Shown here in pieces: positions 19,904 to 46,072 of a stretch of DNA of 64,000 nt. Each line of letters starts with the position of its first letter. Within the stretch, counting starts at the first letter, position 1. The stretch is from Escherichia phage APECc02, in sequence record NC_041869.1; one strand, written 5' to 3'. A program made the position numbers and the translations under genes. The notes beneath the pieces were generated by a model. That model searched no databases. It was not told the DNA's origin and worked only from the letters and a program-made list of their open reading frames with translations.

Positions 19904-20054
19904 AAGGAACCTCTCTTCTGTGGTGTGCTTCTATTCAAGATAAACCTATAAAAGTCCATTTGATGAAGCCGTATAACTTTTTATACTTACGCTTCAGTGC
20001 TAACAATTTTATCTTGATTTTCTTGATAGATTCCCGCATTTCGACCCCTTATGC

Positions 20055-20171
20055 TTATAAGTACTCCGCATCGCATTCAGGGCAATGCCAAATAAAATCG
20101 TCCAGTGCCTTGCACCAACGAAGATTGCAACGACAACCACACTTGCAAATTTTATAAATACCTTTAGACAT
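20055..20171 (-). CDS. possible 38-aa Cys-rich zinc-ribbon peptide
   Basis: AGGGGGGG RBS; C-x-C-x-C...C-x2-C pattern; below track cutoff. Confidence 0.3.
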   Translation of the reverse strand: MSKGIYKICKCGCRCNLRWCKALDDFIWHCPECDAEYL

Positions 20172-20235
20172 ACTGTACCCCCCTAGCTCACTGTGTGTCA
20201 ATAATATGCCACATCCTTGTGGCTTTTGTCAAGTA

Positions 20236-22359
20236 TCAGCAACTACAACTTCCATAGTGCTTAACTCGCTCGATAACTTCCGCTTGCTTACCTTTATTGT
20301 AAGGACGGGAGTTAGGACTGGAAAGGTATCCAGACACACGTCGAATTACACTGATCGTTCCCTCTTCATGGTTTCCACACTCTGGGCATACAAAGCCTTT
20401 AGCTGTTGCACTGAACTCACCAGAGAAACCACACTTGAGACATTTATCCACAGGTTGGTTAATACCAAAATACATAATATGTTTATACCCGAAGTCAACA
20501 AGAGCCTCTAAAGCATCCAGGTTGTTTTTCAGGTTAGGTGTCTCTACGTATCCAATGTTGCCACCAGAGGAGATCATAGCAAAACCTTCCTCATACTCCC
20601 ACTTATCAAAAGGAGAGCTATTTATCCACACTGGCTGATGGAAACTGTTGGTGAGATATTCATGCTCGTGCTTTAACACTTCTGGATATTCACGATCCAG
20701 ACAGGTTGCAGCTTTATAGCATAGACTCTCAGAAGGAGTGCCGTACAAGCTAAATGCTAGTCTACTTTCCTTCTTGTATCGCTCACAAGCATCTCTCATG
20801 TGCTGAAGGATTCCAAGAGCTAAAGCCTTGTCACCTTCTCTGCCCAAAATCTGACAGGTTTCATACACACCAATATACCCAATACTGATGGAAGCGTACC
20901 CGTCATAGAAGAGTTTATCAATACTTTCTTCGGGATCCAGGCGAGCAAGAGCGCCTTCACACCACATGATGGGGTTCTGCCCTGCCTTTGTTCCTTTTAG
21001 ACGGTTAACCCTTACAAGGTGAGCCTCGTATGCAAGATCCAAGTATTCGTCAAGAACTGCAAAGAAATCAACACCTTCCGTCTTAGCTTTTGCCGCAATC
21101 ATTGGCAGGTTAAGGCTAACAACGCCTAAGTTAAATCTGCCAAGGTATTTCTCCTCGCCTGTTTCCAAGTCATTGTATTTACTAAGAAAACTCCTGCAAC
21201 CCATGCTAGTTACTTTGCCATCTGTCGAGCCTGTCACTTTTCTATTTAGTGGTACAGATACGAAGTCAGGATAGATACGTTCTGCACAGCATTCCAGAGC
21301 TAATCGTTTCAAATCATAGTTAGGATCCCCAGGGTTCATGTTGACACCCTCTTCCAGGAAGAACAGCACTTTAGGGAACACAGGTGTGATACGTTCTTCA
21401 CCAAGACCCATTTTGTGGACTTTCAAGTAGTTTTTGGTAATCATTCTACCAAAGACCGAGGTATCTAGTCCTAAACTTAATGTGATGAATGGAGTTTGCC
21501 CGTTGACAGAGGTTAACGTATTGATTTGATAGAGCAAAGTCTGCATGCTGTCAAATACATCTTTATCTGTCATTTGCATTGCAACAGTTTCAGCATCCGG
21601 CAACCAATGTTCCTGGCAAAATTTAAGGTTCTTCTCATAGGTTGCTTCAGCATACTGTGCCAGATAATGATCAATATGGCTCATAGTCTGACCACCATAT
21701 TGAGCACTAGCTACCGCGCTAGAGATTTGACTAAGGATTGTTGTTGCAACCCCTATTGACTTCGGCTTACTGACATGGGCGTTGCCAATGTTGAATCCGT
21801 TTTCCAACATATCTGGATAATTTACCAAACAACAGTTTGTTAACGGGCTGATCAAGTAGTCAAGATCATGCACATGGATGAAGCCTTTATTGTGCTCTTC
21901 TGAAACACGGTCTGGCAGGATCTGTGTTGATGCAAGGTGTTTGCTAAGGATGCCTGCAAGCAGGTCACGATGAGTGTGTACATGATTAGTGGGCTTATTT
22001 GCGTTTTCTTTTGTAAATTCATCACAAGTTCGATCCAAGAAGCCACTAATATCTGCAAGCAGTTTTCCACCTGCCTCTCTGTTATTATCTCTTGTCTGTC
22101 TATACTGGATGTATTCTCTGGCTGCACATTTTAAACCCATATCCATAAGAGCATCTTCAACAAGGATATGGATATTTTTTACAGAGATCGTGCACTGGTC
22201 GGTTGGCAGATTGTTAGCAACAACTTCATTAACCGCACAAGCGATCCGGTAAGCTTCTTCTTCAGTATGCCCAGACTCAAGTAAGGCGGACTCTGCCGCC
22301 TTGATCACCTTAATTCCGTTATAGAACTCTTCTCTACCGTCCCGTTTTACAACTTTCAC
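20236..22359 (-). CDS. nrdD: anaerobic ribonucleoside-triphosphate reductase
   Basis: 707 aa, C-terminal glycyl-radical-like RVSGY and Cys-rich zinc site. Confidence 0.85.
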   Translation of the reverse strand: MKVVKRDGREEFYNGIKVIKAAESALLESGHTEEEAYRIACAVNEVVANNLPTDQCTISVKNIHILVEDALMDMGLKCAAREYIQYRQTRDNNREAGGKLLADISGFLDRTCDEFTKENANKPTNHVHTHRDLLAGILSKHLASTQILPDRVSEEHNKGFIHVHDLDYLISPLTNCCLVNYPDMLENGFNIGNAHVSKPKSIGVATTILSQISSAVASAQYGGQTMSHIDHYLAQYAEATYEKNLKFCQEHWLPDAETVAMQMTDKDVFDSMQTLLYQINTLTSVNGQTPFITLSLGLDTSVFGRMITKNYLKVHKMGLGEERITPVFPKVLFFLEEGVNMNPGDPNYDLKRLALECCAERIYPDFVSVPLNRKVTGSTDGKVTSMGCRSFLSKYNDLETGEEKYLGRFNLGVVSLNLPMIAAKAKTEGVDFFAVLDEYLDLAYEAHLVRVNRLKGTKAGQNPIMWCEGALARLDPEESIDKLFYDGYASISIGYIGVYETCQILGREGDKALALGILQHMRDACERYKKESRLAFSLYGTPSESLCYKAATCLDREYPEVLKHEHEYLTNSFHQPVWINSSPFDKWEYEEGFAMISSGGNIGYVETPNLKNNLDALEALVDFGYKHIMYFGINQPVDKCLKCGFSGEFSATAKGFVCPECGNHEEGTISVIRRVSGYLSSPNSRPYNKGKQAEVIERVKHYGSCSC

Positions 22360-23765: not shown

Positions 23766-26081
23766 TTATAGTGCACAACTTTCGCAATACGGATCTTCAA
23801 CTGAACTATCTGCAATCAAAGGATAGTTCTTTCTGGTTTCATCTTCAGCCTGTTTCTTGGCATGAAGTTCCTCTGCCAAGGAGTCACCAGCACCAACCCT
23901 AGAGTTTAAATAATACCATGTCTTCATCCCGAATTTAGTGGCACGGATAAGGTACCCTAGCTGCTCCTTCATTGAAATTTTACCATCTTTCAACTTGGTG
24001 TAGTCTATGTATAAATCCGCGCTGATTGCCTGACCTGTGAATTTTTGAATCACGGCATACATATCGATCATGTCGTTAGTATCAACGTCCCAAGCCGAAG
24101 TGTAATACTCTTTCAACTCATCATAGTCAGGAACGATAAACAGCACCTGCCCTTGTGGCGACTTTTTAAAGATAATGTGCTCACGGACAGGATAAACCCC
24201 GTTAGTGGTGTTTGTTGCCAGCGAAGAGCTTTCATTAGGCATATATGCTTCAAGAACGCTATTACGTAGCCCACCATTCTCAATGATTTCTTTACGTAAC
24301 CCTTCCCAATCCTGTTTAAGAGAAGGATCTTTCACCACGCTATCGACCTCTTTGTTATAGGTGTCGATTGGTAACCAACCTTCTGGATATTTTGTTTTAT
24401 GCATCCACTCGCAGACACCACGCTCTTTTGCCAACCGTAAACTTGCCTTATGCAAGCTGTAGCTGTGAAGTTCTGCAAGATCGTGAACGAGCTGTTTACT
24501 TTCAGGAGACCCGTAAGTAACCTTGTGGCTGGCAATAAAATGTGCAACATTGGTAAGGCCAACCCCGATGGATCTGCGTTTTTTAACTGTGCTTTCCATA
24601 TTTTCATACGGATATGTCATGATTTCCATAACATTGTCAATCATAAGCACCGTATAGTATGCAACATCCTCATACTCCTCTGGAGTAACCCTCCCAGCTA
24701 CAAGAGATGACAGGAAGCACAATGCAACCTCTCCATCATCAGCATCGTACTTGAAGATATTACGCATATCTGAATAGCCTTTTGTCGGGAGGGCTATTTC
24801 TGCACACAGGTTGCTTGAATAGATCACATCTTTAAAAGGTGTATGTCTATTCATCTCATCTGTCCAGTATACGTACAGCCTTCCCACCTCAGTGCGCTGC
24901 GTGATCAGTTCAACAGCAAGATCTCTAGCTCGGATCCATGTTTTAGGAATACTGTCATCTTTAGCAATACGATCAACCTCTGCATCAAACTCCTCCATAG
25001 ACATGGTGAAGATACCCTCATGCAGTTGAGGCGCGTGCTTATAAGAAACAAGCATCCAATCTAAATTCTTAGCCACACGGTTGATAAACGACCTATTAAT
25101 ACCGATGGAGTAGTCCATGGTGTTGATTCTTTTTGAAGCAACAGTCATAGGGTTTCTCAAACGGATTAGCTCATCAATCTGCGGGTCCAGTGCAAGGAAT
25201 GATACTGTTGCAGAACCACCACGTGATTGTTGTCTGTTCTCCTTAACCCCAGCATCAATACCTCGATAATATGGAATCTTACCCATGTGTTTAATAGTGT
25301 TACCACGAACACCATCGCCTGCAGATCTTGAGGATAAGTAGTAGCCGATACCTGCTTGATTAACCGTCATTGTGTACGCAACTTCACGTGCCACACCAAT
25401 AGATTTTGCTGTATCGTCAGCTTTTATTACACAACAAGATGCATACCCTGTCTTACCTGTGCGCAGCCCGTTTAAGTACGGTGTCGGGGCATTGATCTTT
25501 AAGTCGGACAGATACGTGTATAATTTTACAACATCGTTGATACGACGTTCTTTCGGCATATTCTTCATGACAGCCATTGCTATCCCCATAAACATCATCT
25601 GGGGAGATTCAAACAAGGTGTCTTTAAGAGTATCCTTGATCCCATATTTGTCGCGAAACTGTTTAAGGACTGCATAGCCATAACCGAGATCTTTACTGTG
25701 GTCAATAACAGCGTCTAAAGTGTTTAGCTCGGTAAAGCTATAGCCCATATCCTCCCAATACCCTTTCTCAACCATGGTATTGTAAAATGATGGTAAGGAA
25801 GGGATCTTTGTAAACCCTCCAAAAGCCTCTTTATAAATCTGACCAATAAGAACACGACCAGCCATACGGGAATGTGCTTCGTCTTTACGGCTAACACAGG
25901 AGTCTATGATAGCTTGGTTAACTTCTTTGGTTGTACATCCATCATACAGTCGTTTGTATGCATCCAGTGCAATGTGTGACCAATTGCCGTTACCGTCGTC
26001 ACCGAAAATAGCTGCCTTATTTAAACGTTCTGGATCGAATGCCACTTCACATCCGTTGCTTTTAATTACCTTGGTGATCAA
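23766..26081 (-). CDS. nrdA: ribonucleotide reductase class Ia alpha subunit
   Basis: 771 aa, N-terminal ATP-cone-like region, C-terminal CESC-like tail. Confidence 0.85.
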   Translation of the reverse strand: MITKVIKSNGCEVAFDPERLNKAAIFGDDGNGNWSHIALDAYKRLYDGCTTKEVNQAIIDSCVSRKDEAHSRMAGRVLIGQIYKEAFGGFTKIPSLPSFYNTMVEKGYWEDMGYSFTELNTLDAVIDHSKDLGYGYAVLKQFRDKYGIKDTLKDTLFESPQMMFMGIAMAVMKNMPKERRINDVVKLYTYLSDLKINAPTPYLNGLRTGKTGYASCCVIKADDTAKSIGVAREVAYTMTVNQAGIGYYLSSRSAGDGVRGNTIKHMGKIPYYRGIDAGVKENRQQSRGGSATVSFLALDPQIDELIRLRNPMTVASKRINTMDYSIGINRSFINRVAKNLDWMLVSYKHAPQLHEGIFTMSMEEFDAEVDRIAKDDSIPKTWIRARDLAVELITQRTEVGRLYVYWTDEMNRHTPFKDVIYSSNLCAEIALPTKGYSDMRNIFKYDADDGEVALCFLSSLVAGRVTPEEYEDVAYYTVLMIDNVMEIMTYPYENMESTVKKRRSIGVGLTNVAHFIASHKVTYGSPESKQLVHDLAELHSYSLHKASLRLAKERGVCEWMHKTKYPEGWLPIDTYNKEVDSVVKDPSLKQDWEGLRKEIIENGGLRNSVLEAYMPNESSSLATNTTNGVYPVREHIIFKKSPQGQVLFIVPDYDELKEYYTSAWDVDTNDMIDMYAVIQKFTGQAISADLYIDYTKLKDGKISMKEQLGYLIRATKFGMKTWYYLNSRVGAGDSLAEELHAKKQAEDETRKNYPLIADSSVEDPYCESCAL

Positions 26082-26386
26082 TTTGCTTCCTCCACTTCAT
26101 TAACGTATTTATCAAGGCAGGTATCAGTATCTTGCTGGATAAAGGTATCCTCTTCTACAGAGATATTTATAATTTTACCTGTATACTCGTCATAATAAAC
26201 ATCATCATACATTTTAATATCGTTTGTCAGGCCGTTGAACCAAAGCCAACCAACATATTCTGCCCGACTTGCAAAACCAAGATCCTTCCACTTGGAGTTA
26301 TGACTCATCTTCACCACCTTAGCTTTCAATACCGAATAATTTTTCCAGGCGATGCAGATCTTCAAAATTGAAAGGTTCATCAACAA
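26078..26386 (-). CDS. hypothetical protein
   Basis: ORF co-oriented; start may be downstream of track start. Confidence 0.45.
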   Translation of the reverse strand: MLMNLSILKICIAWKNYSVLKAKVVKMSHNSKWKDLGFASRAEYVGWLWFNGLTNDIKMYDDVYYDEYTGKIINISVEEDTFIQQDTDTCLDKYVNEVEEAN

Positions 26387-26819
26387 TATGAATATCTTCA
26401 GCCTTTTCAGATTGTTTTGTATACTTTCTTACATTAACACGATCCTCTACGGGGATATCATACGGGAGATCTTGAACAAGCATTGCCTCACCAGGTGCTT
26501 TATCTACATCTAAAATATCTACACCGTTATACATTTGTGGGTATCTAAAGTCTGCACGCATGACACCAGCAAATACATCTGCCTTTCGATAATGTGTTGG
26601 CTTATTTTTGCATCGAACGTTTTTTCCACGAAGAACATCAATACTTTTTAAATCAAACCCTACGGCAAAGAGTGCAGCTCGGAGACCGTTTCGTGTGCGA
26701 ACGTTAAACCCGGGGACGGTAGATAGAAAATCTAAAGTAACTGAAATAAATGTCTTTTTAGGAATCATAACATTACTCATATCTGTCTCCATTTCTGGCT
26801 CACCAACAAAGTGAGCCAT
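26319..26819 (-). CDS. hypothetical protein
   Basis: ORF; promoter at 26821-26849 suggests a later Met as true start. Confidence 0.45.
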   Translation of the reverse strand: MAHFVGEPEMETDMSNVMIPKKTFISVTLDFLSTVPGFNVRTRNGLRAALFAVGFDLKSIDVLRGKNVRCKNKPTHYRKADVFAGVMRADFRYPQMYNGVDILDVDKAPGEAMLVQDLPYDIPVEDRVNVRKYTKQSEKAEDIHIVDEPFNFEDLHRLEKLFGIES

Positions 26820-26820
26820 T

Positions 26821-26849
26821 ATTATAGATTATCTAATACTATTAGTCAA
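26821..26849 (-). promoter_or_regulatory. sigma70-type promoter on minus strand (TTGACT-N17-TATAAT)
   Basis: plus-strand ATTATA 26821-26826 and AGTCAA 26844-26849. Confidence 0.55.
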
Positions 26850-26878
26850 CACAAAAGTTACCTATCGCTGTGATAGGA

Positions 26879-27862
26879 TTAACCTTTCACGAAGTGGTTA
26901 TTAAGCAGTTGTCTGTGCTGAACCCACCCACAAAAGTTGGCAGACCAGAATTTACCATCACGGTCTTGATGGGTTACACCTTCCTGCCAAGTACTGATGT
27001 CTTGTGTGATTTCACATGAAGACAGGTAGTAGTTTAAACGTTCCATTGCGTTATCGTGATCCATAGGTGTTGCCTGGTGCTCGTAAGGGCTTGCATGAAT
27101 ACGATCCCCACCAATCAATTTTTTAGCCACACTATCTGCCTTTTCAAACGTGCTGTCAATATTTCGATAAGATACTTGTGCACAGCAACTAGCACTGATA
27201 GACAGAGCTTCTTTAGTATCGAGAATGCAGAGCTTTCCTTCTGTGTCACGTACAGCGTAGTTAAACTCTCCGTCCAAATAAACGTGCTCTACATATGGGG
27301 TGTGCCATTGACCCGGTTTAAGGATTTCAGGAGTGCTATTCTCAAGAGCCTCCCACATACAACTAGCTAACATCTGAATCGTAGGATCCGCATCGTGCCA
27401 GCAACGGAGGTGGAAAAAATTATTCCACTCGGTGCTTGTTACAACTGTTTTCATGCGCTGGAACGGCTCCACTAAGCGGTTACATACTTGCTTATGGTAA
27501 CCAGCAAGGGCGAACTTCTCTGCATGCCAAGCGGCGTTTTTTGCAGCTTCTTTCCAAAACTCTTCAGGAGTTAGCTCCATGTCAGTGTACTCTACACGGA
27601 TCTTTTGATCGTGTTCCCCACCATCTTCCATTCCTCGCTTATTTACACCGAAGCGAACTGGCATTGCCGGATTCTCCACAATCTGTTGCAGCATCTTGCC
27701 GACAGGTACTGCACGGGAAGACATGGCGTTTCGGCTGAACACTCGGTGCGTCATAAGCTCTGAGTGAATAATTCGAGGATACTCTAGTTCAAAAGTGGTG
27801 ATACGCTTACCTTTCTCGGAAATGCTGTCAGCAATAATCTTTGCAGTGCACAGTTTTAGCAT
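26879..27862 (-). CDS. thyX: ThyX (Thy1) family flavin-dependent thymidylate synthase-like protein
   Basis: THRVFSRNAMSSR aligns with the ThyX RHR-x7-S signature, first Arg replaced by Thr. Confidence 0.55.
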   Translation of the reverse strand: MLKLCTAKIIADSISEKGKRITTFELEYPRIIHSELMTHRVFSRNAMSSRAVPVGKMLQQIVENPAMPVRFGVNKRGMEDGGEHDQKIRVEYTDMELTPEEFWKEAAKNAAWHAEKFALAGYHKQVCNRLVEPFQRMKTVVTSTEWNNFFHLRCWHDADPTIQMLASCMWEALENSTPEILKPGQWHTPYVEHVYLDGEFNYAVRDTEGKLCILDTKEALSISASCCAQVSYRNIDSTFEKADSVAKKLIGGDRIHASPYEHQATPMDHDNAMERLNYYLSSCEITQDISTWQEGVTHQDRDGKFWSANFCGWVQHRQLLNNHFVKG

Positions 27863-28062
27863 TATTTAGCTCTCCTTGTTTTAATTTTGGAAATTTCGTC
27901 TGGGTTTATGTTGGCCTTAAATGCAAGGTATCTGTTGAACATGTCAGAGCACATATCTTGGGTGATCCTAGAGGCATACACTAGCTTACCTCCTAGATCA
28001 TACACCTCTAGCCAGTCACCGTATCTGACTACAGGATCGCCACCTTTAGAACATCTGCCCAT
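27862..28062 (-). CDS. hypothetical small protein
   Basis: ORF co-oriented. Confidence 0.4.
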   Translation of the reverse strand: MGRCSKGGDPVVRYGDWLEVYDLGGKLVYASRITQDMCSDMFNRYLAFKANINPDEISKIKTRRAK

Positions 28063-28063
28063 T

Positions 28064-28657
28064 TCAAATACCTTCTAAAAATTTTCCTATTTTATACCAG
28101 CTATTAGCGGTATAGTCAACACTGACCTTTAACTCCTCGAATTGCTCATAAGGCGTATCTTTTAGGATTTTAATAACTTCAGGTCGTGAAGCGAATTGGT
28201 TCAGGTATTCATGCCTGTCATCAATTATAACATCTACAGCCACATTTCCTTTGAAATGTGTGGCGTAGAATCCGTGGCCCTGGGTGTGATCGTCCAGATC
28301 CATAAAATCACTGGTCCAACGCTTTAAGAACCTTGATTTAGATGCAAGGTGACCTTTCTTGCATACCGAGATAAATGCAAGCTTGTGACCACGAGCCACC
28401 AAATCTTTCATAACCTCAATAGCCCCCTCTTCAGGCTTAAGGAAGTCGTAGAGGAACGGATCACTCCAGAAATCAAAAGGTCCTATGATGTTTTCTTTGG
28501 GACGATCAGGCCAATACTTTGACAGATCGTAATACATTAGCCCATTAGAAGGTTTAGCTACTGTCTTACTGGCTGGACCATACAAACGCTCCAACCACTC
28601 CCACCATGCTGTTCCTGAATCTACCAGTGTCAGATCTACATCAATTCCGATTAACAT
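28064..28657 (-). CDS. HAD-superfamily hydrolase, deoxyribonucleotidase-like
   Basis: N-terminal DxDxT motif IDVDLT. Confidence 0.55.
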   Translation of the reverse strand: MLIGIDVDLTLVDSGTAWWEWLERLYGPASKTVAKPSNGLMYYDLSKYWPDRPKENIIGPFDFWSDPFLYDFLKPEEGAIEVMKDLVARGHKLAFISVCKKGHLASKSRFLKRWTSDFMDLDDHTQGHGFYATHFKGNVAVDVIIDDRHEYLNQFASRPEVIKILKDTPYEQFEELKVSVDYTANSWYKIGKFLEGI

Positions 28658-29265
28658 TCTTCTTGGGCCTCTTTAGCATCAATATACTTGCACACAATCT
28701 CCGATGCACACTCCCAAGGTGCACCTTCAGGGTTTACAACATCAAACTCAACCCCTTTTATTCCGTTCTTTTCCAGACTTAGATAGGTTCTGGAATCATT
28801 TCCCCAGTCATATCCTACACGGTGAATACGGAACAACAACAGATCTCCACCTGTGCTGTATGCGTACTCGCTAAGGCATGCCAGCTCCTCTTTGAATCCC
28901 CCATCGGAGTAAACAATAACCCCTTTACCTTCAGGGAAATCTTTCTTCAAAGATGCGACTGCGGCTTTACCGAAAGCATCTTCACCAAAGATAGGTTTAA
29001 TCAGATTTTCACTACAATGGATCATCCATTCTCGCGGAGAAACATGCTTGCCGTCTATCATTAAGAAAGGGCAAGGCTCTTCTTTGTAGTGACGGTCATA
29101 AAGTGCATTCCAGAGTTGAGGAGTTACACCAGCTGCCTTAATTGCCACACTGAAGAGCATTTCCTTAACCTCGCGGTGGTGTGAGTTAGGAATAGCTTCC
29201 AACAAGAGATCTGCAATGTGATCCTTACCACTGCTGGGTGGGGCGTTAAGAACAATAATATCCAT
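28651..29265 (-). CDS. deoxynucleoside monophosphate kinase-like (T4 gp1-like)
   Basis: N-terminus IIVLNAPPSSGKDHIADLL resembles T4 dNMP kinase. Confidence 0.55.
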   Translation of the reverse strand: MDIIVLNAPPSSGKDHIADLLLEAIPNSHHREVKEMLFSVAIKAAGVTPQLWNALYDRHYKEEPCPFLMIDGKHVSPREWMIHCSENLIKPIFGEDAFGKAAVASLKKDFPEGKGVIVYSDGGFKEELACLSEYAYSTGGDLLLFRIHRVGYDWGNDSRTYLSLEKNGIKGVEFDVVNPEGAPWECASEIVCKYIDAKEAQEEC

Positions 29266-29468
29266 TAAAAACCTCCGTGGTATTCTTCAACTGCATCAAT
29301 AATACTTTTACACTTATCTACCAGCTCGTTAGCCACTACAGAATCGTCTTCCCAAACAGCCTCCTCAATCTGATCAAGCAATGATCGCATCTTACTCATC
29401 ATTTCTGGGATAAAGTTTTCTGAAAAGCTGTCTGGAATTGTTAACTCTAGTGTCATTTCGGTCTCCAA
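29265..29468 (-). CDS. hypothetical small acidic protein
   Basis: ORF co-oriented. Confidence 0.4.
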   Translation of the reverse strand: METEMTLELTIPDSFSENFIPEMMSKMRSLLDQIEEAVWEDDSVVANELVDKCKSIIDAVEEYHGGF

Positions 29469-29483
29469 TCATACTATGCGTTA

Positions 29484-29942
29484 TTAGAAGTTTGTTTTTA
29501 CACGTCCCTTCTCATCAACCTCGTTGTTAGCTAAAAGCGTTACAAAGTCTGTGAAACGAACATGAAGAACCCTTTTCTTATCAAGGTATCCTAAAGCCAC
29601 CCCTGAGAAATTTAGCATCAAAGGGGCTAAAGAAGCTCTGGCACTGAAATGCTGTTGTTCTACCCTTCCAACACCCTTAGTGTAGGATGGGTTAAGATTG
29701 TAAGTTCTGAATCCCAGTTTTGTTGGAGCTTTAGAATTAAAAACGACTTTATAGCGTTTCTTACTCAACTTATGCTCCAGGATAAGCATTCCCTTATCAC
29801 CTTTGATAAGTTGAAAATCTGTAAAGTGCTCTTTTAAGACGAAAGGTAGTGCCAGTCCCATCGCCTGTCCTCTTTGTACCGCTGTCTCACCAAAAGCTTT
29901 TGCATCAGTAAGTTCTTTGGTCAAGTCTATGCTTTTGATCAT
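29484..29942 (-). CDS. hypothetical protein
   Basis: ORF co-oriented. Confidence 0.45.
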   Translation of the reverse strand: MIKSIDLTKELTDAKAFGETAVQRGQAMGLALPFVLKEHFTDFQLIKGDKGMLILEHKLSKKRYKVVFNSKAPTKLGFRTYNLNPSYTKGVGRVEQQHFSARASLAPLMLNFSGVALGYLDKKRVLHVRFTDFVTLLANNEVDEKGRVKTNF

Positions 29943-30753
29943 ACCTGGTCTCCAAAATGTATTGTAGTTCTTTCTTACCTATACTCTTCATTCCAGCAGT
30001 CTTACCTGCTTCTTCTTGAAAAGAAGAATAGCATTCAGCAAACACTCTGTCAACACCGTTAACTAAAGATTTTATGAAATATGTTGATTCTTCAGATTTT
30101 GGGTCATCATCCCCCAATACTTTTCCAGCATTATACCCAACACGTCTTACACAGAAGTCGTAGTCATCTGGTGTGCTAAAAGAAAATAACTTATTCTCTC
30201 CAATCTCTACAGGATCCCTATTGCACGCCTTTTTCTCCCAAATTTGGAAAACACATGGCACGTCATAAGGTTTGCCATTAAGTAAAAACGAATTCTTAGG
30301 GCACCTTTCGCTGTAGACAAGGTGCATCGACATGTCCAGTTTGTTTGCAAAAAATATTTTTTCAAATGTCCGTGGCAAGATGAAGGCTATAGCCCCTCCA
30401 AGCTCTAGCAATGATGCACAATGGTTAAAGAATTTGCAAGCTAAGGATGAATTCTTGCCAAATGGTGGGTTACCTATGAAGACATCTGCCTTGGGATGCA
30501 CCTCCAAGAAGTTTGCCTGAATGCACGGTGTTGGTCCTTCAAATTCAGGATCTGGTACTAAATCGTACGACAGTATCTCTGAAAATAGTTTTGAAAAAGA
30601 ACCCCTTCCAGCAGAAGGCTCAACGTATGCACAATTCCCATACTTATCTTTTACTTTACCAACAAGATATTCTGCATACTCAGGGTTTGTGTAGTATTTG
30701 TCGTTGGACTCTTTCTTGCTCAAAGTGCCTCCAAAAGGAAAAGGGAGGCGCAA
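29905..30753 (-). CDS. DNA amino-methyltransferase (N6A or N4C)
   Basis: motif I EPSAGRGSF and motif IV FIGNPPFG. Confidence 0.65.
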   Translation of the reverse strand: MRLPFPFGGTLSKKESNDKYYTNPEYAEYLVGKVKDKYGNCAYVEPSAGRGSFSKLFSEILSYDLVPDPEFEGPTPCIQANFLEVHPKADVFIGNPPFGKNSSLACKFFNHCASLLELGGAIAFILPRTFEKIFFANKLDMSMHLVYSERCPKNSFLLNGKPYDVPCVFQIWEKKACNRDPVEIGENKLFSFSTPDDYDFCVRRVGYNAGKVLGDDDPKSEESTYFIKSLVNGVDRVFAECYSSFQEEAGKTAGMKSIGKKELQYILETRYDQKHRLDQRTY

Positions 30754-45259: not shown

Positions 45260-45334
45260 GCCCTGTTAGCTTAGTGGATAAAGCAGCGGCCTTCTAAGCC
45301 GTTGACACTGGTTCGAGTCCAGTACGGGGTGCCA
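45260..45334 (+). tRNA. tRNA-Arg (anticodon TCT), CCA encoded
   Basis: cloverleaf folded by hand: 7-bp acceptor, anticodon loop CTTCTAA, GTTCGAGTC T-loop. Confidence 0.75.
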
Positions 45335-45338
45335 AATT

Positions 45339-45425
45339 GGGGAGTTATCCCGTAGAGGTAGCGGTGTAGACTGTAAATCTATTGTCATTGCGACTCGGGT
45401 GGTTCGACTCCACCACTCCCCACCA
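45339..45425 (+). tRNA. tRNA-Tyr (anticodon GTA), long variable arm
   Basis: anticodon arm AGACTGTAAATCT identical to bacterial tRNA-Tyr; acceptor pairs; CCA encoded. Confidence 0.8.
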
Positions 45426-45539
45426 AATTTACATTTTTAAATGCATAAATCATACAGATAATGGCATTGATATTTATCGTCGTTTATACTAGTCACTAAC
45501 TGCTCGAAAATCAGTGTCATTATCAGTATTGTTTATAAA

Positions 45540-45630
45540 TGAGGGTAGGGAGCAATGGTGCTCAAGCGGTCTTGAAAACCGTCCCGTTGAGGATGACTCG
45601 ATGATGGTTCGATTCCATTACCCTCAGCCA
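45540..45630 (+). tRNA. tRNA-Ser (anticodon TGA), long variable arm
   Basis: anticodon loop CTTGAAA, long variable arm, T-loop TTCGATT; 5' boundary uncertain by 1 nt. Confidence 0.65.
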
Positions 45631-45728
45631 TATTGTTGACCTTGTAATTAAGCGAAAGCCGGAAGCAGAACCGGATTATCAAATGTTACAGTCGTCATCG
45701 CCGACTAGCAACATGGTCAACATACTGA

Positions 45729-45825
45729 GCTAGGTAAGCCCTTTGGCAAGGGCGAGGATTTTTAATCCTGAAAATAGACGAGGTAGTCGTTGAATACATA
45801 GGTGGTTCGATTCCATCACCTAGCA
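45729..45825 (+). ncRNA. atypical tRNA-like element (acceptor and T-arm intact; possible TTT anticodon; ~31-nt variable region)
   Basis: GCTAGGT/ACCTAGC acceptor pairing and GGTTCGATTCC T-arm, but non-canonical middle. Confidence 0.3.
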
Positions 45826-45832
45826 CCTTTTT

Positions 45833-45908
45833 GCTGATGTAGCACAATTGGTAGTGCAATTGATTTGTAATCAATAGGTTGCAGGTTCGAGTCCTGCTAT
45901 CAGCACCA
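45833..45908 (+). tRNA. tRNA-Thr (anticodon TGT), CCA encoded
   Basis: acceptor GCTGATG, D-arm GCAC..GTGC, anticodon loop TTTGTAA. Confidence 0.75.
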
Positions 45909-45909
45909 T

Positions 45910-45984
45910 GGCCCTGTAGCTGGAAGGTTCAAGCAAGCGACTCATAATCGCCAGACGGTGGTTCAATTCCACCCAGGGCCACCA
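45910..45984 (+). tRNA. tRNA-Met or Ile2 (anticodon CAT), CCA encoded
   Basis: acceptor GGCCCTG/CAGGGCC, anticodon loop CTCATAA. Confidence 0.75.
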
Positions 45985-45995
45985 AATAATAAATA

Positions 45996-46072
45996 CTCCG
46001 CGTAGCTCAGCTTGGTAGAGCGCCTGATTTGGGATCAGGAGGTCGAGTGTTCGAATCACTCCGTGGAGACCA
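45996..46072 (+). tRNA. tRNA-Pro (anticodon TGG), CCA encoded
   Basis: canonical D-arm TAGCTCAGCTTGGTAGAGC, anticodon loop TTTGGGA. Confidence 0.75.

Follow-up and report, generated by a model that had tools for sequence, protein, structure and literature searches.

A permuted ThyX-like protein family with a remodelled active-site signature, examined from Escherichia phage APECc02

Introduction

The flavin-dependent thymidylate synthase ThyX, a target for antimicrobials, has been studied intensively because it catalyzes its reaction with no nucleophile from the enzyme. In current mechanisms, the first arginine of its RHR motif stabilizes the anionic reduced flavin and binds deoxyuridine monophosphate (dUMP), and a role is also given to a lid tyrosine. 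ThyX works as a homotetramer in which three subunits contribute to each active site; it carries bound flavin adenine dinucleotide, turns dUMP into thymidylate with the help of NAD(P)H and CH2H4folate, and can complement thyA. Here, we analyzed a 64,000-nucleotide stretch of Escherichia phage APECc02 (NC_041869.1), hereafter the window, which contains a gene for a ThyX-like protein. Compared with canonical ThyX (PF02511; Thermotoga maritima TM0449, Mycobacterium tuberculosis Rv2754c, and PBCV-1 A674R), the phage protein is about 100 residues longer and its segments follow one another in a permuted order. Its family also has an extra conserved C-terminal tail (N309, Q315, and R317) and a WH187xP189Y linker. 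Judging from its residues and its gene neighborhood, we consider it likely to be a functional ThyX-type flavin-dependent thymidylate synthase that converts dUMP to deoxythymidine monophosphate (dTMP) for phage DNA replication.

Two other kinds of enzymes invite comparison. PolB, the ThyX-like UMP/dUMP C5-methylase of polyoxin biosynthesis (PDB 4p5a), belongs to bacterial secondary metabolism, owes its use of UMP to loops specific to it, and keeps the canonical order, whereas the phage protein stands in a DNA precursor context; PDB searches with the protein and with the family profile found no specific sequence similarity to PolB. T4 gp42 and the SPO1 dUMP hydroxymethylase are members of the ThyA superfamily that use folate only and a cysteine nucleophile, with a fold and a chemistry unrelated to those of ThyX. 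What they share with the present case is phage-encoded one-carbon transfer to the C5 of a pyrimidine deoxynucleoside monophosphate (dNMP), followed by the action of a phage dNMP kinase. The phage protein has no Pfam match to the ThyA-superfamily domain Thymidylat_synt.

Results

Segment order of the ThyX fold

The gene and the parts of its product are laid out as follows (Tm denotes T. maritima ThyX residues).

26879 to 27862, minus strand: ThyX-like open reading frame of 327 residues with an ATG start, annotated "thymidylate synthase" in related phages
27872 to 27877, minus strand: AAGGAG ribosome-binding site of the ThyX-like gene, read directly from the sequence
27320 to 27805, minus strand: core of the ThyX fold, residues 20 to 181, equivalent to Tm 60 to 202 and holding R129 (approximately TmR147), T144 (TmR165), and R153 (TmR174), from hhalign, hmmsearch, and Pfam
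27065 to 27217, minus strand: relocated module, residues 216 to 266, with two helices and H256-A-S258-P-Y-E261-H262, homologous to ThyX 20 to 62, from hmmsearch and hhalign
26879 to 27064, minus strand: family-specific C-terminal tail, residues 267 to 327, a variable loop followed by the conserved N309, Q315, and R317, from family conservation

The permuted order emerges from alignments of the family with T. maritima ThyX, for which we used a sequence identical to PDB 1kq4 at 219 of 220 positions. By hhalign, residues 20 to 181 correspond to Tm 60 to 202, and hmmsearch aligns the N-terminal part of the phage protein to Tm 58 to 90 and 156 to 199 and its C-terminal part to Tm 20 to 68. With a profile built from the C-terminal part (residues 183 to 327), residues ~218 to 268 fall on Tm 20 to 68, the alignment running through helix 1 (AARVSF versus CAQVSYR), helix 2, and H256-A-S-P-Y-E-H262 versus H53-E-T-P-F-E-H59. 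This match scores 17.1 bits in hmmsearch, against 4.5 bits for the best of 2,000 shuffles of the T. maritima sequence, and hhalign of the C-terminal part gives an E value of 1.7e-4 over 43 columns. The α1-α2-HxS/TPxEH module, which in the canonical linear order precedes β3-α3-RHR, thus comes after the core, and as judged from the two alignments, the canonical order A(20-62)-B(60-202) is B-A in the phage protein. Between segments B and A lie the W-H187-x-P189-Y linker, which is invariant, and a small β-hairpin. The compact, high-confidence structure model suggests that the relocated module occupies its canonical site, so that the helix-helix-HxS/TPxEH part of the flavin/folate site would be encoded after the core instead of ahead of RHR.

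We found no description of a permuted ThyX in the literature searched, and a permuted, signature-remodelled ThyX family has apparently gone undescribed so far. As a possible trace of permutation by duplication, the C-terminal end (WVQHRQ) was considered as the remnant of a second copy of α3-RHR; this found no support, the N-terminal profile matching real C-terminal tails no better than shuffled ones. The tail residues N309, Q315, and R317 have no assigned canonical counterpart.

Relation to ThyX by profile and by fold

The original prediction of a ThyX-like protein longer than a minimal ThyX is borne out on both counts. The family hidden Markov model Thy1 (PF02511), the only Pfam match of the protein, is reached at 37 bits against a gathering cutoff of 24.8 (E value of 3.8e-9), and the 327 residues compare with 191 to 245 residues resolved in solved ThyX chains. 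Since the Pfam match spans only residues 23 to 179, corresponding to profile positions 60 to 191 of 191, it leaves the first third of the profile without a match and does not account for the C-terminal 150 residues. In the isolated C-terminal half, Pfam does not detect Thy1 even at E values up to 10. PHROG 85 ("thymidylate synthase") matches the protein over its full length (2.9e-112).

The predicted structure has the three-dimensional fold of ThyX, and every significant structural match is a ThyX. The model used, of a monomer, was obtained with AlphaFold from a 144-sequence alignment and replaced an earlier one from a shallow, 25-sequence alignment, which was mediocre (predicted local distance difference test [pLDDT] score of 71; Foldseek template modeling [TM] scores of 0.3 to 0.46). 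In the ThyX-like model, pLDDT is lower (65 to 71) over residues 271 to 290. Other long (300- to 370-residue) phage "ThyX-like" proteins in BFVD, from crAss-like, Gordonia, Sulfitobacter, and Brevibacillus phages, match the model weakly (TM score of ~0.3), and phages may carry several distinct enlarged ThyX variants besides the permuted family.

Size and spread of the family

A word-indexed search returned 7,443 relatives, the best 120 of which are nearly all 318 to 347 residues long and lie on contigs of ~140 to 150 kb. When 1.84 billion cluster representatives were searched exhaustively with a profile, at least 5,496 clusters matched at an E value of ≤1e-3 and 3,340 at ≤1e-30. By tblastn against 50,697 phage records, the gene is present in 1,034, where it is always annotated as hypothetical or as thymidylate synthase; carriers include Vequintavirinae, phAPEC8-like phages, Vibrio phage ICP1, Pseudomonas phages of the PAK_P1/Pakpunavirus types, N4-like podophages, Caulobacter phiCbK-like phages, and Cellulophaga phage phiST. 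Among 185,579 bacterial and archaeal species (one genome each), 17 loci were found, mostly on contigs of 9 to 130 kb from metagenome-assembled genomes, a count that is indicative only because the search patterns were narrow. The permuted family appears to be essentially phage borne.

Some 20 GenBank records bear the name "Campylobacter phage" and give C. jejuni as the host (MG065635, MG065653, MG065662, MG065672, MG065677, and others), yet they are 98% identical to the window over 4 kb (26000 to 30000), and further records of this name match phAPEC8-like phages. The C. jejuni host labels of these records look doubtful.

Conservation was read from 133 sequences, namely, the query and 132 representatives of 37 to 52% identity. 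Invariant or nearly invariant residues are H39, S48, S49, R50, A51, G77, M78, K124, R129, T144, N148, and R153 in the core and H187, P189, S223, S231, H256, S258, E261, H262, N309, Q315, and R317 in the C-terminal part.

A remodelled active-site signature

The signature is encoded within the core.

27713 to 27751, minus strand: altered ThyX signature T38-H39-R40-x3-R44-x3-S48-S49-R50, followed by A51 in place of the canonical lid tyrosine, from the translation and the alignment to T. maritima R78-H79-R80...S88-G89-R90-Y91

Residues 38 to 50, translated from this interval, are THRVFSRNAMSSR. The reading of THR-x7-SSR in place of RHR-x7-S, made from the letters of the window, agrees with the translation (T38-H39-R40-x7-S48-S49-R50), and the motif is invariant in 25 homologs of 55 to 82% identity. 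Together with the Pfam score and the conservation of Thr38, this shows that the likeness to the ThyX signature did not arise by chance. The first arginine of RHR-x7-S is thus a threonine, and the histidine, the second arginine, and the serine are present. Position 38 is Thr in 128 of the 133 sequences, Arg in 2, and Lys in 2; together with the at least 5,496 clusters and the 1,034 phages, this makes the altered signature a family trait and not a one-off mutation. At position 44, where canonical ThyX has a tyrosine, 127 of 132 sequences carry Arg or Lys. Read across the family, the remodelled signature is T-H-R-x3-[RK]-x3-S-S-R-A, compared with the canonical R-H-R-x7-S-x-R-Y.

An extended ThyX motif is said to have been given by Ulmer et al. 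in 2008 as Y44..H69..R95-H-R..S105-x-R-Y..R199 in M. tuberculosis (Mtb) numbering. Seven of its nine positions are present in the phage protein (Y232, H256, H39, R40, S48, R50, and R153), the exceptions being R95, which is T38, and Y108, which is A51. By hhalign and hmmsearch, the core retains H39 (TmH79), R40 (R80), S48 (S88), R50 (R90), R129 (approximately R147), and R153 (R174), and the relocated module retains H256 (TmH53), S258 (T55), E261 (E58), and H262 (H59). In addition, R30 sits at the −8 position, like Mtb R87. Three residues are replaced, TmR78/MtbR95 by T38, TmY91/MtbY108 by A51, and TmR165/MtbR190 by T144, and these substitutions are fixed across the family (T38 in 96%, A51 in 99%, and T144 in 98%). 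The residues that polarize the substrate and bind phosphate (S48, R50, R129, R153, and R30, along with H39, R40, H256, and E261) are kept, with the first RHR arginine, the lid tyrosine, and one arginine for the phosphates of flavin adenine dinucleotide (FAD) exchanged.

Inteins in the conserved motifs

Sixteen family representatives are 520 to 680 residues long (P0128, P0135, P0137, P0139, P0157, P0160, P0161, P0171, P0175, P0184, P0194, P0198, P0200, P0214, P0233, and P0246). A tandem-duplicated ThyX was considered as their origin and ruled out, since inteins are present: all seven long relatives scanned carry one by Pfam (Intein_splicing with HNH, or LAGLIDADG_3). The six or so insertion points, read from the sequences and given in query numbering, are H33|S34, R40|V41, F42|S43, S48|S49, H155|x156, and H256|A257, all within conserved motifs. 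The APECc02 gene itself has no intein.

Where an essential replication enzyme carries an intein, homing into a ligand-binding motif is a familiar pattern. Because those found here mark the same motifs that map to the flavin and dUMP sites of ThyX, they point to these motifs as the active site. This bears on whether the protein could be a catalytically dead ThyX relic, kept for a structural or regulatory role, for instance, in a deoxynucleoside triphosphate (dNTP) synthetase complex. The loss of the canonical RHR arginine and of the lid tyrosine would fit such a relic, but inteins at several independent motif sites are what is seen at the active sites of essential enzymes. Moreover, about 50 positions, all mapped ligand-binding positions included, are at least 85% conserved among representatives of 37 to 52% identity, and the three substitutions are fixed rather than drifting. 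We therefore regard a dead relic as highly improbable.

Genomic neighborhood and DNA modification

APECc02 is a Vequintavirus, i.e., an rV5-like myovirus of ~136 kb, and the 4-kb stretch around the gene is 99.7% identical to phage RudolfGeigy (Bas52) of the BASEL collection, in which the counterpart is annotated "thymidylate synthase." This counterpart, Bas52 gp188 (QXV84267), has an identical or nearly identical product. The start codon of the ThyX-like gene shares 1 nucleotide with the stop codon of the upstream gene (TAATG). In RudolfGeigy, the minus-strand block begins with a class III nucleoside triphosphate (NTP) reductase, its activator, a glutaredoxin, the class I reductase beta and alpha subunits, two small genes of unknown function, and the ThyX-like gene; a small gene of unknown function, the HAD-type gene, the P-loop gene, two further genes of unknown function, an N6-adenine methyltransferase, and a DnaQ-like exonuclease follow. 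Three neighbors matter most here.

28064 to 28657, minus strand: HAD-superfamily 5'(3')-deoxyribonucleotidase-like gene (Pfam NT5C at 27.1 bits versus 24.8; phrog_420; DVDLT, i.e., DxDxT, at residues 6 to 10)
28651 to 29265, minus strand: dNMP kinase-like P-loop gene, T4-gp1-like (phrog_139, "deoxynucleoside monophosphate kinase," 4.4e-44; PSSGKD P-loop)
23766 to 26081, minus strand: class Ia ribonucleotide reductase alpha subunit, from the open reading frame and the annotation of the 99.7%-identical RudolfGeigy region

The original prediction had placed a HAD nucleotidase and a dNMP kinase near the gene and seen in them a nucleotide-remodelling pathway. Both identities hold (NT5C and phrog_139), but a conserved pathway does not. 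Related loci were taken from IMG/VR where each side had 4 kb of flank or more; of these 45, tblastn detected the HAD gene in 14, the kinase in 6, NrdA in 16, and DnaQ in 14, so the ThyX/HAD/kinase trio is a feature of this lineage. Genes of both kinds, nucleotidase and kinase, routinely serve phages in dNTP provisioning. The ThyX-like enzyme would act in a dNTP supply module of the phage, along with aerobic and anaerobic ribonucleotide reductases, glutaredoxin, dNMP kinase, and 5'-nucleotidase.

The alternative that the enzyme makes a noncanonical pyrimidine nucleotide has to be weighed against this background. It might form 5-hydroxymethyl-dUMP, A51 letting water reach the exocyclic-methylene intermediate, or methylate dCMP; its product would next be phosphorylated by the neighboring dNMP kinase and incorporated into phage DNA. 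The RudolfGeigy annotation, however, lists DNA methyltransferases but nothing for hypermodification, and no ThyA, dihydrofolate reductase (DHFR), or second thymidylate synthase that could supply dTMP. The linkage to the HAD and kinase genes is found in a minority of related loci, and the family is present in 1,034 phages of many unrelated lineages, in which thymine replacement is not described in the papers searched. Sensitivity to restriction alone does not rigorously exclude small modifications such as 5-hydroxymethyldeoxyuridine. Modified-DNA phages of the T4 and SPO1 type resist restriction. Vequintavirinae are, unlike them, exceptionally sensitive to restriction-modification (PMC8594841). 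In PaP1, a Pseudomonas phage of the Pakpunavirus type, a type in which other phages carry the present family, single-molecule real-time sequencing detected only sparse N6-methyladenine and N4-methylcytosine (PMC4177049). We accordingly hold the production of a modified pyrimidine to be very unlikely. For APECc02, the sequence gives no sign of modified DNA, and the gene most likely supplies dTMP.

Several further features of the region were recorded. The phage group carries four putative N6-adenine and one Dcm-like C5-cytosine DNA methyltransferases (window 29905 to 30753, minus strand, and the RudolfGeigy genome), and its reported restriction sensitivity is exceptional notwithstanding these enzymes. 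The coding sequence of the class III anaerobic NTP reductase is joined from two pieces in the RudolfGeigy annotation (~19980 to 22150 of the window, minus strand, by correspondence), and the same holds for the RudolfGeigy DNA polymerase, in two pieces, and large terminase, in three. Essential genes of this phage group may thus contain introns or be interrupted in some other way. Seven tRNA genes cluster at 45260 to 46072 on the plus strand: Arg-TCT, Tyr-GTA, Ser-TGA, Thr-TGT, Met-CAT, Pro-TGG, and a seventh of 99 nucleotides (45729 to 45827), to which ARAGORN gives a four-base anticodon, "atcc," without an assigned amino acid (Rfam tRNA, 35.5 bits).

Discussion

We favor ordinary dTMP synthesis for this protein because the residues that bind and polarize the substrate are conserved, the gene lies in a block for deoxynucleotide synthesis, beside nrdAB, nrdDG, and grx, and no ThyA, DHFR, or second ThyX is annotated in the sister genome. 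Of the two interpretations first offered for the protein, a divergent thymidylate synthase thus gains from the conserved residues and the dNTP context, whereas an enzyme for a modified pyrimidine loses from restriction sensitivity, the lack of a second thymidylate synthase, and a standard dNTP module.

A number of observations weigh against a working thymidylate synthase of the ThyX type. The score against the NCBIfam thyX equivalog model TIGR02170, 38.8 bits, is far below its curated cutoff of 87.9. No solved ThyX was retrieved from the PDB by sequence, whether the query was the protein itself, the profile of the family, or that of the C-terminal part, so the link to ThyX rests on Pfam, on the fold, and on pairwise profile comparisons with shuffle controls. 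In canonical ThyX, all three of the replaced residues matter for the mechanism: the R78 guanidinium faces N1/C2=O of the reduced flavin FADH− (PMC11940539), this first arginine of RHR forms hydrogen bonds to the isoalloxazine and dUMP, the tyrosine covers uracil C5 and flavin N5 like a lid and shields them from solvent, and MtbR190/HpR165, the equivalent of T144, binds the FAD phosphates (PMC6514825). Given these roles, the substitutions are genuine changes at the catalytic center. No assay of any member of the subfamily was found in the literature searched. Finally, a possible compensation within the signature draws on few sequences: a basic residue at position 44 is absent in 3 of 4 sequences with Lys or Arg at 38 versus 2 of 128 with T38, one of those two having Arg37 (Fisher P = 1e-4), a covariation that comes from four to five sequences and a statistic that ignores phylogeny.

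This anticorrelation suggests a shift of the positive charge from residue 38 to residue 44. Six residues downstream of 38 in the substrate loop, R/K44 probably provides flavin N1/C2=O and dUMP with the charge of the first RHR arginine.

A further question is whether "thymidylate synthase" is a misannotation by homology. The protein could be a flavoenzyme with the ThyX fold that acts on another substrate or in another pathway, one that does not feed DNA directly (for instance, on UMP, like PolB) or that uses another flavin or reductant. Such a reading would agree with the superfamily-level Pfam model passing where the equivalog model fails, with two arginine-to-threonine changes at positions that bind the FAD phosphates and the isoalloxazine, and with new invariant residues (H187, P189, N309, Q315, and R317) that have no canonical counterpart. 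Against this, the residues that bind and polarize dUMP (S48, R50, R30, R129, and R153) are all conserved, and the gene sits among genes for deoxynucleotide synthesis in a phage that otherwise lacks its own route to dTMP. We find a different substrate or cofactor unlikely and retain dTMP synthesis as the probable function.

It is similarly doubtful, though conceivable, that the permuted Thr/Ala site reflects an altered chemistry. A solvent-open site might make 5-hydroxymethyl-dUMP, or some other pyrimidine modified at C5, in low or regulated amounts; alternatively, the enzyme might differ from ThyX in its flavin, its reductant, or its oligomeric state. If this were true, a distinct enzyme would stand behind the "thymidylate synthase" annotations of more than 1,000 phages, among them ICP1 and N4-like, PAK_P1-like, and rV5-like model phages. 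As it stands, the label on more than 1,000 phage genomes, several of them model or therapeutic phages, reflects homology at the superfamily level only, below the equivalog threshold.

The permuted family illustrates how the fold of an enzyme of core metabolism can be permuted. Very large and strongly conserved, yet devoid of both the first arginine of RHR and the tyrosine of the lid and permuted in its chain order, it provides a natural test of which features of ThyX are essential.
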